A stretch of 64,000 nucleotides of DNA from Promethearchaeota archaeon Loki_b32 (GCA_005223125.1 NJBH01000003.1:164303-228302), one strand, 5' to 3'; positions 60,295 to 63,919 are shown, counted from the first letter of the stretch. Notes: generated from the letters alone by a model not told the origin. Numbers and translations: made by a program.

Positions 60295-61104
60295 TTAAGT
60301 GAAATCTATAGACCTTGCTAAAAAATATGCGATTATAAACATAATCAAAGTGATAACTGAAAGAAACCAGAAATCGGTATACAATATATTTATAACCATT
60401 ATTCCTACTACAACTGGTATTGCTGTTAAAAGTAGAACATTTTTACGCTCGATTGGACTACGATCAGCCCATATAAGTAGAATTGTCCACCCTAACATCA
60501 AAAAAGCTCCAGTTCCTGTTTGATATTTATAAGAGATATCTGTACTTACATTTGGCTGTGAAACTGAAAATTCAAATAATATCGAAATGATCATATCAAG
60601 GAAAACCAATAGATCAAGAATTTTGTTTTCTAAATGCCCGATAACTTGCTCTACTCCACCTTGGTTTTTTATAGTAAACCCTATTGTCCGATATAGACCA
60701 ATAGCACCTAGAGCATCTAATTTATCAGCATCAGATAATATTGTTGCTTCAAGAGTTTGAGGAACTACATTATTGGAGAATGAATGTGTTCTGATGCAGT
60801 GAATTATATTATCAAAATCTTCTTGAGAAAGTTTAAAATCATTTCTACGCAAAAATTCTGCAGCAATCTCAGCAGATAATTCAGCATGGTTCTTATTATA
60901 ATCCGCTATATTCTTATACGTCCTTCCGATATCATGGAATAATGCAGCAATTTTAAGGATGAGTAGATTTGCTCCTAGTTATTTTCCTATTTGCAGACAT
61001 AAATTAAAAACACGCTCAACATGCGAAAAGCCATGAATGTCATCTTTTTCAGAGTTTTTAGATGCGTATTTTCTGACAATTATAATTATTTCTTCTTCAG
61101 ACAT
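60295..61104 (-). pseudogene. HD-domain hydrolase with in-frame TAA (60979-60981), fused to a membrane-protein fragment
   Basis: ATG at 61104; HGFSHVERV, AALFHDIGR, NHAELSA, DADKLDALGAIG all in one frame; abrupt switch to TM sequence after HLENKILD. Confidence 0.8.
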
Positions 61105-61109
61105 GAATA

Positions 61110-62108
61110 CTACCAATCATTATTTTCCCATTTTTTAAAAGAACCAAACCCATCAACATTCGAAATTACTTCTTTTGTATTCTTATTAAAAGTAATTAAG
61201 ATAAAGTACGAAGACTCATTCCGTTTAAAGGATTTGTGCTGTAAATGTTTTGAATAACTTTCAGCAAAAATTAAAAGGACATTAATTGAGTCTTCTTTTT
61301 CACGAATAAAAGGAATAATTGAACTCCATTTATGAAAGAACCTATATTCTTGGCTAATATTTTTAGCTAACTCAAAAAAGGTCATCTCTATTGAGTCATT
61401 CAAAACACTTTGATTATATAATTCCTGTTTCTTCGAGGAAAACACAAATGCTTTATTTAATTTAAACTCTATGCTATTATTTGCTGTACTCTTCTCATAT
61501 ATTAAATAGAAGAATGGAAAAAAGCCAGGAATATAATGTTGATTCTTAGGTAAGATCACTTGTATTATTATTCTTAAAAGAGCCCTTATCCCAAAATAGA
61601 ATATGTAAAAATACAGGTAAAATGAACCGAGACTCATAAATACATGATATGAAGGGTTTAAAAAAAAATATGATATTAAAACTAAAATATTAATGCCTGA
61701 AAAAGTAGCTAATAAAGGATTAACTGCTCTTTCAGCAATAAATCGAAATTCCTTTTTGGAAATTGGATAGAAAATTGGTATTCTTGAAGCAGCAAAGAAA
61801 TCCAATGAAACATGAATACTATACCCAATAAATCCTGCAAGCCAAACTTCTAGAAATAGCACATTTCTAAATATAGATATAATTAAACTAATGATTCCAG
61901 TAAAAATAAGTCCTACAATATAGGAGTGTGAACCGGCTTTATGGGAAAAAAAATACATCTTTCGTATTTTTTGGAGTGGTTCTAAGAATACATCGAAATC
62001 AGGTAAAAAGGTCATAATCCATAGAAAGATGATGGCTTCTGGGCTTAGAACAGTTAAGGTGAATAAACCAGCTAATACCCCCATAAACATATGTGTGAAA
62101 ATATCCAT
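61110..62108 (-). CDS. Membrane-bound metal-dependent hydrolase (YdjM-like)
   Basis: MDIFTH, LPDFD, H..SHS, HVSLD. Confidence 0.85.
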   Translation of the reverse strand: MDIFTHMFMGVLAGLFTLTVLSPEAIIFLWIMTFLPDFDVFLEPLQKIRKMYFFSHKAGSHSYIVGLIFTGIISLIISIFRNVLFLEVWLAGFIGYSIHVSLDFFAASRIPIFYPISKKEFRFIAERAVNPLLATFSGINILVLISYFFLNPSYHVFMSLGSFYLYFYIFYFGIRALLRIIIQVILPKNQHYIPGFFPFFYLIYEKSTANNSIEFKLNKAFVFSSKKQELYNQSVLNDSIEMTFFELAKNISQEYRFFHKWSSIIPFIREKEDSINVLLIFAESYSKHLQHKSFKRNESSYFILITFNKNTKEVISNVDGFGSFKKWENNDW

Positions 62109-62163
62109 ATCTAGTTTAAAAATAAGACAGTTTATTTATACAATTCGATTAAAATTTATTTTT

Positions 62164-62180
62164 ATAGGAAGCAATCCTAT
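62164..62180 (-). terminator. Short hairpin directly after the SECIS (copy A)
   Basis: ATAGGA-N5-TCCTAT; also present in copy B at ~62863-62879. Confidence 0.4.
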
Positions 62181-62222
62181 TGTCAACCTTCCACTAGTGT
62201 TTTTTGAAAGGTTTCATTCAAT
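62179..62222 (-). promoter_or_regulatory. Candidate eukaryote-like SECIS element (copy A)
   Basis: AUUG-AAU-GA-AACCUUUCA-AAAAACACUAG-UGGAAGGUU-GA-CAAU: K-turn core, 9-bp stem, A-rich loop, 3 nt after the stop codon. Confidence 0.85.
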
Positions 62223-62225
62223 TTA

Positions 62226-62711
62226 TTAATTAGTTCTTTTGGTTTTAAAATAATGGGCAAAAATTTCATTTTCTTTTCCGTATTTTTCTCTTATAAAATT
62301 TTTAAATTTCCCAATATCTAAACGATTTCTCACTTTTTCTCATCAACATCCAGAATCTGGTTGTAAATCTATTACACTATTAGGATATAATATAAAATTT
62401 ATATCATCTCGAAGTGGCATAAATTTTCTTAAATTACCATCTTCGTCAGCACCATAAGGCATTATTCCAACATCATCATAAATTATATTATGTTTTGGAT
62501 CCCAAAATAATTGTAAATAATTATAAATATAACCTTCAAATATTGGAAATATCGATTCACGTGGATTCTCAAATATATATTTATCTACAATTGCTAAGGC
62601 TTCAATAAAAGTAGCATCATCTTTTACTTGAACAGTATATTCTTTCCCTTTTTGTAGACCCATCGACGGTATACTAATTTTAAATGTAATTTTCTTAATT
62701 TTAATAATCAC
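62226..62711 (-). CDS. Candidate selenoprotein A: beta-grasp/ubiquitin-like domain-SGC-U-U-37 aa tail (161 aa)
   Basis: TGA at 62343-45 and 62340-42; frame stays open and conserved to TAA at 62226; SECIS follows. Confidence 0.8.
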
Positions 62712-62748
62712 CCCATTATGGTTAATACAACTATTAAAATCTAAATAA

Positions 62749-62811
62749 ATCTTTTTCAGAGTTTTCTAATGCGTATTTTCTGACATTTAGAAAAATTTCT
62801 TTTTCTATCAT
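62749..62811 (-). pseudogene. 21-codon remnant of the HD hydrolase N-terminus
   Basis: MIEKEIFLNVRKYALENSEKD vs MSEEEIIIIVRKYASKNSEKD at 61104. Confidence 0.8.
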
Positions 62812-62877
62812 AAGTTTGTACCAATTTTTAAATCCCATTTCTTAAAAGAATATATATAATATATAGGAAGCTTTCCT

Positions 62878-62921
62878 ATTGTCAGCTTTTCACTAGCGTT
62901 TTTTGAAAGGCTTCATTCAAT
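62878..62921 (-). promoter_or_regulatory. Candidate eukaryote-like SECIS element (copy B)
   Basis: AUUG-AAU-GA-AGCCUUUCA-AAAAACGCUAG-UGAAAAGCU-GA-CAAU; has G-C where copy A has A-U. Confidence 0.85.
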
Positions 62922-62924
62922 TTA

Positions 62925-63401
62925 TTAATTAGTTCTTTTGGTTTTAAAATAATGGGCAAAATTTTCATGGTCTTTTCCATAGGTTTTCATAATAACTCTT
63001 TTGAATGTGCCATAATCTAATCGATCTTTCATTACGTCAGCTCATCAATCAGCATGAACAACTATTGTTATTTCGCTGTTAGGGTATAAGTTAAAATTTA
63101 TATCTTCATGTAAAGGTATGAACTCTTTATTAGGTCCATAGGCATTTACTGCACAATCCTCATAAATAACATTTTCCTCAGCATCCCATATTAACTGAAG
63201 ATAACTATGAATTAAGCCCTTATATATAGGAAAAATGGTTCTATCAGGATTTTTGTATATATTTTTATCTAAAATGCTTAACGCGTCAATAATTGATCCA
63301 CTATCGTCTATATTTAAATTATATTCAAGCCCGTTTGATAATTTCTTCTCAGGATCTGGAGCAAAAATTGTTAGTTTAATTTTCTTAATTTTAATAATCA
63401 C
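62925..63401 (-). CDS. Candidate selenoprotein B: beta-grasp/ubiquitin-like domain-AD-U-U-38 aa tail (158 aa)
   Basis: TGA at 63045-47 and 63042-44; frame stays open to TAA at 62925; SECIS follows. Confidence 0.8.
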
Positions 63402-63434: not shown

Positions 63435-63725
63435 CTAAATTAATCCTTTTGCTTTAAGAAGTTTTGGTAGTTCTTTCTTGAGATTTAATGAGGAAGAGAA
63501 TTTTTTCTCTCCATCTATTATTATACATTTGTTATGGAGATTAAGCTGCCTTGCTTCTTCTGAATTAAGATTCTTAGTGTCATACTCAATATGTTTTATA
63601 TAAGGTGTAAGCTCAATAAATACTCGGTTCATAAATTTATCCCATTCACACGCACACGCGTCTAAGGGAACATATATATCTACCTTTAATTTTTCTGAAG
63701 CTTTATCTTCACTAATCTTTATCAC
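63435..63725 (-). CDS. Small thioredoxin-like-fold protein with CxC motif
   Basis: VDIYVPLDACACEW after a beta strand; CIIIDG near the C-terminus. Confidence 0.6.
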   Translation of the reverse strand: MIKISEDKASEKLKVDIYVPLDACACEWDKFMNRVFIELTPYIKHIEYDTKNLNSEEARQLNLHNKCIIIDGEKKFSSSLNLKKELPKLLKAKGLI

Positions 63726-63739
63726 ACTTAAGAATTATT

Positions 63740-63919
63740 TTAATCTATATTATGAAGTCCTTTACATCTATCGGTACCACAATGAATACGTCTTGGTTCA
63801 TAATCTGGACTATCTTTATTACAATGTGATTCCGAGTTATTACAGCTTGAGTGAGACATATTTCCAATAGCTTCTCTTATTATCTTGGCAATTTGTTCAT
63901 CCATTTCTTCTTCATTCAT
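63740..63919 (-). CDS. 59-aa Cys/His-rich small protein (not in ORF track)
   Basis: MNEEEMDEQIAKIIREAIGNMSHSSCNNSESHCNKDSPDYEPRRIHCGTDRCKGLHNID; stop 14 nt before the next gene. Confidence 0.65.
   Translation of the reverse strand: MNEEEMDEQIAKIIREAIGNMSHSSCNNSESHCNKDSPDYEPRRIHCGTDRCKGLHNID

Follow-up and report, generated by a model that had tools for sequence, protein, structure and literature searches.

The twin-UGA genes and their neighbors

The window, i.e., the whole stretch of 64,000 nucleotides analyzed here, comes from the genome of Promethearchaeota archaeon Loki_b32 (GCA_005223125.1, NJBH01000003.1:164303-228302). Two paralogous genes of about 160 codons are located close to its end on the minus strand, each of which contains a tandem in-frame UGA-UGA and is followed by a hairpin of the same architecture (Table 1). 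The ORFs as listed end at TGA (62343-62711 and 63045-63401), and the second in-frame TGA comes next; after the UGA-UGA there are 37-38 sense codons and then a TAA-TAA double stop. The first base of the hairpin comes directly after the second TAA, 3 nt after the first stop, and the UGA-UGA lies about 120 nt upstream of the element in both genes. The last 33 nt of the two coding sequences (62226-62258 and 62925-62957, minus strand) are 100% identical, the part extending from the stop to the end of the second hairpin is 89% identical, and the rest of the genes 61-67%. The identity of these 33 coding nucleotides could be due to gene conversion or to an extra constraint acting at the RNA level.

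Table 1. Positions of the features of the twin-UGA locus, counted from the first letter of the window.
Feature	Position	Strand	Description
Second hairpin (P2), copy A	62165..62179	minus	UAGGA-UUGCU-UCCUA, abuts helix I
SECIS core, copy A	62179..62222	minus	sequence, RNAfold, model R2, covariation in 61 orthologs
Predicted selenoprotein gene A	62226..62711	minus	161 codons + stop; ...DSGC-U-U-EKV...; second TAA 62223-62225
Tandem UGA-UGA of gene A	62340..62345	minus	about 120 nt upstream of gene A SECIS
Second hairpin (P2), copy B	62864..62878	minus	UAGGAA-AGC-UUCCUA
SECIS core, copy B	62878..62921	minus	same architecture as copy A; one C.A mismatch in helix II
Predicted selenoprotein gene B	62925..63401	minus	158 codons + stop; ...VVHAD-U-U-ADVMK...; second TAA 62922-62924
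Tandem UGA-UGA of gene B	63042..63047	minus	sequence
96-aa CxC protein	63435..63725	minus	upstream partner of the twin-UGA genes; no Pfam family

No Pfam family was found for either of the predicted selenoproteins, for their 96-aa partner, or for a 59-aa Cys/His-rich protein encoded at 63740-63919 (minus strand). The 96-aa CxC protein is encoded on the same strand just upstream in 51 of the 66 homolog loci described below, and the 59-aa protein precedes the family in 14 loci. In the closest orthologous loci (L065:897-2373 and L023:1300-2931), the genes of an ArsR-family regulator and an SBF-family transporter are located just upstream; the SBF family contains Acr3. The upstream part of the operon cannot be read in the present genome because the contig ends at the end of the window. 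From the ArsR/Acr3-type neighbors, we can only infer that the Cys-Sec-Sec site might bind arsenic-like metalloids. A distant non-Sec homolog of 157 aa (L139:1274-2216) carries Val-Ser at the Sec-Sec position and has kept the flanking Cys; a NifU_N (IscU-like) gene is present 4 nt downstream, which hints that the fold has a sulfur/selenium or metal-relay function.

In the AlphaFold model of the gene A protein (pLDDT 88, pTM 0.86), obtained with 38 sequences, the chain forms a single compact domain that includes the tail: the helices following the two Sec positions (UU) have pLDDT values of 92-95 and lie on the N-terminal domain. Comparisons with the PDB using Foldseek gave only weak beta-grasp-like matches (TM about 0.3, best E 1.3e-3), and because of their weakness no functional assignment is drawn from the fold. 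Elsewhere in the window, an HD-domain gene located downstream of a YdjM-like gene (60295-61116, minus strand) has a single in-frame TAA at codon 46 (about 60979-60981), past which the frame runs on and encodes a hydrophobic C-terminal part; a pseudogene, a faulty assembly, or some other cause may account for this.

Structure, class, and conservation of the hairpins

Copy A, read from 62222 to 62179, is AUUG-AAU-GA-AACCUUUCA-(AAAAACACUAG)-UGGAAGGUU-GA-CAAU, which corresponds to a helix I (AUUG/CAAU), an AAU bulge, a tandem G.A/A.G (AUGA...GA), a 9-bp helix II, and an 11-nt loop. The consensus of the loop in both copies is AAAAAC(A/G)CUAG, copy B having AAAAACGCUAG. Both helices, the asymmetric loop of 5 nt between them, and the 11-nt loop capping the 9-bp helix II were recovered by RNAfold in both copies. 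An earlier, sequence-only reading of this DNA had described the same structure 3 nt after each true stop, with the AUUG/CAAU stem, the AAU bulge, the GA/GA pairs, the 9-bp stem, and a loop starting with AAAAA; the sequence and the RNAfold results agree with it throughout, and both pairs of coordinates proved to be exact, on the minus strand. Copy B (62921 to 62878) differs from copy A at 5 of the 44 positions: A-U is replaced by G-C, which is compensatory, U-G by U-A, and C-G by a C.A mismatch, and one loop base is changed. The changes at the three pairs are those on which the claim of compensatory changes had been founded, but the support given by two copies is thin, as there is one double change and one disrupting change; this line of evidence is strong only with the 61-sequence alignment presented below. 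The MFE z-scores obtained versus shuffled sequences were unremarkable (-1.36 in copy A and +0.29 in copy B). Since they are not significant, the stability of the hairpins was left out of the evidence, and the support for these hairpins consists of their motif, their position, and the comparative data.

Two covariance models were used, one built from the two window copies alone (R1) and a broader one (R2). With the filters off, R2 gave copy A a score of 63.8 bits (E 5.5e-13) and copy B a score of 56.4 bits (E 3.7e-11), and at E<=1 these two SECIS sites were the only ones detected in the whole 64-kb window.

Six features define the lokiSECIS (PMC4989117; Mariotti et al., 2016): its main stem of 9 bp is preceded by AUGA and followed by GA, and its loop has 11 nt, begins with five adenines, and ends in a G that comes after an A. 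The same element is also known as the Asgard type I eSECIS-like element, the model of which allows a stem of 7-15 bp with at most 2 mismatches (Huang, Xiao & Zhang, 2024; PMC11227280). Both window copies show all six lokiSECIS features, the stem consisting of 9 bp in copy A and of 9 with one C.A mismatch in copy B, and both also fit the type I eSECIS-like model, which bears out the Lokiarchaeal SECIS signature recognized by the sequence-only reading. The element is located shortly past the stop of a UGA-containing gene in the case of the window copies and in 61 other loci, and it resembles the elements of known selenoprotein genes of the same genome (HdrA and VhuD with R1; three PrxL genes and a second VhuD with the descriptor scans presented below). 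The window hairpins are genuine members of the known class lokiSECIS, and this type of signal, which is already known, is ordinary for a Lokiarchaeial genome.

As in the lokiSECIS described previously, the element occurs a few nucleotides after the stop and one element is able to serve more than one UGA. The window elements differ from them in that they serve a family outside the seven listed Asgard selenoprotein families, that they would serve two adjacent UGAs, and that they are followed by a conserved second hairpin, which is absent from the text of PMC4989117 and PMC11227280. With eukaryotic SECIS they share the AUGA/GA kink-turn quartet, the unpaired adenines on top of helix II, the location in the 3'UTR, and the action on UGA at a distance, whereas their helix II is shorter and their host has no SBP2. 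The Rfam SECIS models gave nothing at the gathering threshold in the whole window and nothing at E<=10 in positions 62100-63000; the Rfam matches in these scans were only chance ones (HOTAIR and snoR160). The window element would be eukaryote-like in its working and, by this model test, is not a member of the Rfam eukaryotic SECIS family. With the euryarchaeal (Methanococcales) SECIS it shares the 3'UTR location in an archaeon using the PSTK/SepSecS pathway. In the latter elements, a short upper stem made up of G-C pairs alone is separated from a G/C-rich lower stem by an asymmetric GAA_A bulge (PMC4989117), whereas neither a GAA_A internal loop nor a G-C run was found in the window copies, which have A/U-rich stems and the AUGA/GA core.

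Homologs of the two genes were found at 66 loci in GTDB genomes, belonging to Promethearchaeota and to bins labelled Hermod-, Hod-, Thor-, and Odinarchaeota. An in-frame TGATGA is present in all 64 of these loci that cover the site. Three subtypes can be distinguished among 66 genes, including the two in the window: 34 read ...GC-UU-EKV (type A: 33 homolog loci and the window copy, all with TGATGA), 30 read ...HAD-UU-ADVM (type B: 29 homolog loci and the window copy, all with TGATGA), and 2 read ...SSS-U-G-UU. Protein searches gave about 60 relatives, most of which have been cut at about 120 aa by gene callers, while in a few the gene call took TGA as Trp, so that "WW" appears at this point; a profile search of 1.84 billion representatives gave only 60 relatives.

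The SECIS is present 0-21 nt past the stop in 61 homolog loci. In the alignment of these 61 sequences, pairing in helix II reaches 94.5%, and double-sided changes affect 8 of its 9 pairs; none of 500 shuffles reached the observed scores, slid controls were 43-58% paired, and RNAalifold found the same helix II. Helix I is weaker, 76% of the cells being paired, and its closing G-C is invariant. The AUGA is invariant in 61/61 orthologs, and on the 3' side GA is almost universal, with AA in a few of them; in the loop (alignment A6), three adenines and the loop G are invariant. At one locus (L033:2992-3970), a type-B gene comes 16 nt after a type-A gene, and a single SECIS is present, after the type-B gene only. 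Judging from this arrangement, which is similar to the shared HdrA-VhuD SECIS described in 2016, the decoding of four UGAs, in two cistrons, would have to depend on this one element.

Probable translation beyond the UGA-UGA and genome-wide distribution of the signal

We consider it very probable that the hairpins are functional 3'-UTR SECIS of the Lokiarchaeial eukaryote-like type I, one per paralogous selenoprotein gene, and that both UGAs are read as Sec. The motif, its position, its conservation and covariation, the coding selection across and after the UGAs, and the Sec machinery are all observed, and the use made of the hairpins by the sequence-only reading, as support for UGA recoding, is supported by the SECIS class match, the covariation, and the in-frame conservation of the tail. 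Several points speak against the SECIS reading: the C.A mismatch in copy B, the shortness of helix I, the fact that no Cys homolog was found, the ATG of the type B genes, folding energies no better than those of shuffled sequences, no match with the Rfam SECIS models, and no SBP2-like protein.

The variation after the two UGAs shows the same pattern by codon position as before them, the third positions being the most variable: the entropies at the three positions after UU are 0.64/0.41/1.07 bits in type A and 0.46/0.39/0.94 bits in type B. In the codons right after the UGAs, the residues are conserved and the changes are synonymous. In distant homologs that lack TGA, the reading frame is uninterrupted at the site and extends into a homologous tail (...C-I-TE... 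or ...C-VS-F..., then the shared L-D-Y-x-x-F motif), and no SECIS is present downstream. None of the homologs has Cys at the two Sec positions, the distant non-Sec homologs having Ile or Val-Ser there along with the conserved flanking Cys, and the classical evidence from a Cys/Sec pair is therefore lacking; the other classical evidence of a selenoprotein, namely a UGA with downstream coding conservation and a SECIS, is present.

These data also bear on the possibility that the UGA-UGA is a true double stop, that a separate microprotein of about 35 aa is restarted at GTG or ATG, and that the hairpins, being 3'-end or stability elements, merely resemble SECIS. The main argument left for this comes from the type B genes, where an invariant ATG is present four codons after the UGA-UGA; in type A the codon at +3 is mostly GTG, most database entries have a gene call ending at the first TGA, and no homolog has Cys at the UU positions. 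However, the start codon is not conserved in type A, as the codon at +3 is no start in 9 of the 34 genes (GTA, ATA, ATT, or GTT), and the amino acids encoded between the UGAs and the putative start are conserved, their codons varying synonymously. In addition, the frame is always that of the upstream ORF with an identical codon-position pattern, AlphaFold packs the tail onto the N-terminal domain with high confidence, the UGA-less homologs are continuous, and the same type of hairpin occurs behind known selenoprotein genes. We regard a restarted microprotein as highly unlikely.

To return to the SECIS reading, the distribution of the signal was analyzed in the whole genome (4.13 Mb, 30% GC, both strands). 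A descriptor based on the literature only (AUGA, 9 bp with at most 1 mismatch, an 11-nt loop starting with AAA, then GA or AA) gave 8 matches, versus about 2 in Markov-simulated genomes. Six of these 8 are located 2-18 nt after ORFs with an in-frame TGA: PrxL, an HdrA-like protein, VhuD, a small membrane protein, and the two window copies. The refined descriptor gave 11 matches, 10 of which lie at -7 to +18 nt from the end of such ORFs; this set includes PrxL (three), HdrA, VhuD (two), the twin-UGA family, and two small membrane proteins. The genome SECIS catalogue rests on these descriptor scans; the pre-filtered genome search with R2, in which 150 of about 12,000 first-look candidates were scored, missed two of its own training members.

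The sequence-only reading had proposed a genome scan with a covariance model built from the two copies, and had held that matches mainly behind genes without in-frame UGA, or no likeness to the elements of known selenoprotein genes, would point to a generic kink-turn. In the scan with R1, the 7 sites found at E<0.01 are all directly behind ORFs with an in-frame UGA: the two window copies, a third paralog on C32, the HdrA-like and VhuD-like genes, and the two small membrane proteins. None of the genome matches at E>1 has an in-frame UGA. Thus the proposed scan gave the expected result, including HdrA and VhuD, and neither of the contrary outcomes was seen. The two small membrane-protein ORFs each have one in-frame UGA and a type I SECIS behind them: one of about 85 aa (...GG-U-AC...; SECIS at C70:14677-14720, plus strand) and one of about 109 aa (...DDDDCF-U-H...; SECIS at C11:35658-35701, plus strand). 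On the strength of these features, they are candidate further selenoproteins outside the listed Asgard families.

Kink-turns of this kind are known to bind L7Ae/SBP2-family domains, and the genome encodes only two L7Ae-domain genes and no SBP2-like extra protein. The parts of a box C/D sRNA are a C box (RUGAUGA), a D box (CUGA), a second such pair (C'/D'), and a guide. Here the sequence is UUGAAUGA ... UUGAC, the two halves being separated by a 9-bp hairpin; there is no Rfam snoRNA match, and the site was rejected as a box C/D sRNA. That the hairpins are generic L7Ae-binding kink-turns unrelated to Sec decoding, either a box C/D-like sRNA remnant or a regulatory site, nevertheless draws on the presence of L7Ae and on a core which is that of the textbook kink-turn, i.e., a canonical stem, a 3-nt bulge, and a tandem G.A + A.G opening the non-canonical stem (PMC5061560), a correspondence seen at the sequence level (AUUG / AAU / GA ... 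GA / CAAU). The absence of a C box, a second C'/D' set, a guide region, and an Rfam snoRNA match at the site, the occurrence of the motif genome-wide almost only directly behind UGA-containing ORFs, and the conservation of the loop adenines and of the loop length as in SECIS speak against this reading, which is likewise highly unlikely. The least probable of all is that the similarity between the copies reflects only a recent duplication or a gene-conversion tract, the structure being without function: the gradient of identity between the paralogs (100% in the last 33 coding nucleotides, 89% from stop to second hairpin, 61-67% elsewhere) agrees with it and gene conversion may explain this local identity, but not the conservation of the element, with compensatory changes, in 61 loci from many genomes with diverged flanks. 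The comparative data already refute this last reading, barring assembly artefacts in the alignments of orthologs.

The decoding of UGA as Sec, which the SECIS reading involves, is matched by the machinery present: SepSecS, PSTK (PSTK/KTI12), a SelB-type factor, a tRNA-Sec, and two selD genes were identified in the genome. The two selD genes are in tandem and carry an in-frame UGA along with type II AUGA...GA elements. Elsewhere, TGA serves as a stop in the usual way, and 236 of 1628 long ORFs end at it. The tRNA-Sec gene is located outside the window (C57:28507-28655, minus strand) and adjoins SepSecS. It was detected only by BLAST with an 89-nt tRNA-Sec of the same genus, to which it showed 96.6% identity, in pieces; it is split by two insertions of about 30 nt, presumably introns, which affect the regions of the D-arm and the T-loop. 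Because of these insertions, the gene is missed by Rfam and ARAGORN, and they perhaps also explain why 5 of the 20 relatives searched fell below the tRNA-Sec cut-off. The Rfam tRNA-Sec model gave nothing over its cut-off in the genome; its best match was identified by sequence reading as an intron-bearing tRNA-Gly(UCC) and rejected, as were two 35%-GC "tRNA-SeC" calls made by ARAGORN at a relaxed threshold, which look spurious.

The second hairpin and the proposed decoding of tandem UGAs

Directly 3' of the CAAU of helix I, a short second hairpin is present in both copies. It is kept in 61/61 orthologs, with 98% of the cells paired, and was recovered independently by RNAalifold; 11 double-sided changes occur at its closing pair. 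A terminator scan detected no bacterial-type terminator at this hairpin. In constrained MFE folding, all 8 of the other type I SECIS of the genome carry, on the same side, a short hairpin capped by a YGNRA-type loop, to which they add an outer helix, giving a three-way junction; the sites with this organization include C3:11703, C3:12443, C31:2765(-), C36:18947, C36:76471(-), and C50:19313. Sequence reading of the 3' regions of the selD genes on C16 suggests that these two elements likewise appear to form three-way junctions.

The organization was checked in PrxL (loci L100-L137), using 28 sequences, i.e., 27 distinct metagenome elements and the genome's own PrxL element. Pairing amounts to 78% in the outer helix, 90% in the main helix, and 88% in the third arm; double changes occur at 16 of 20 pairs, and none of 500 shuffles reached the observed scores. 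In the twin-UGA SECIS, comparison of the duplex energies of native and mismatched 5'/3' flanks gave p = 0.36 overall, and an outer helix is clear in some lineages only. For these two reasons an outer helix is not claimed for the window copies, which differ in this respect from the PrxL, HdrA, and VhuD elements of the same genome.

The term k-junction denotes a k-turn that has an additional helix on its non-bulged strand (PMC4005666, PMC10573300). The PrxL, HdrA, VhuD, and apparently SelD elements resemble it in that a hairpin is inserted in this strand, with the G.A pairs on one side and the outer helix on the other; the resemblance is one of topology, and the window copies have no evident outer helix. 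The text of PMC4989117 and PMC11227280 contains no mention of a third arm or a three-way junction. These data suggest that the published two-helix SECIS models are incomplete without the third arm. A broader proposal, to which we would give somewhat less than an even chance, is that Asgard SECIS in general are k-junction-type three-way junctions in which the third arm is required, and that the twin-UGA variant, with the third arm abutting a helix I of 3-4 bp, drives two back-to-back Sec insertions and sometimes serves four UGAs in two adjacent cistrons.

As regards the mechanism, we infer the kink-turn geometry, the recruitment of factors, and the actual insertion of Sec. The kink-turn core would be formed by the helix I of 3-4 bp, the 3-nt bulge, and the tandem sheared G.A pairs arising from AUGA...GA; it would be topped by the 9-bp helix with its A-rich 11-nt loop and be followed immediately by the short second hairpin on the non-bulged strand. 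With a ribosome at the UGA-UGA about 120 nt upstream, the element would recruit the archaeal Sec elongation factor carrying Sec-tRNA(Sec), either directly or via a kink-turn-binding adaptor. Both UGAs would then be read as selenocysteine, and translation would continue for 37-38 codons up to the TAA-TAA.

The twin-UGA family was not found in the published Asgard selenoprotein catalogues which we located (homology-based, seven families), and a search of the literature for adjacent or tandem Sec or UGA gave nothing relevant. The selenoprotein family, the tandem Sec-Sec, and the conserved third arm of the signal therefore appear to be unlisted in the literature searched. Since the hairpins are independent evidence at the RNA level, what would be taken for "hypothetical proteins ending in a double stop" become, very probably, selenoproteins, and the family missing from the catalogues would comprise at least 64 Asgard loci with an invariant Sec-Sec dipeptide, which is preceded by Cys in one subfamily. 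The adjacent UGAs would involve two consecutive deliveries by the Sec elongation factor under the control of one 3'UTR element, and such tandem decoding would be a demanding case for models of archaeal and eukaryote-like communication between SECIS and ribosome. The third arm bears on the question as to what the SECIS reader recognizes in a lineage without SBP2.
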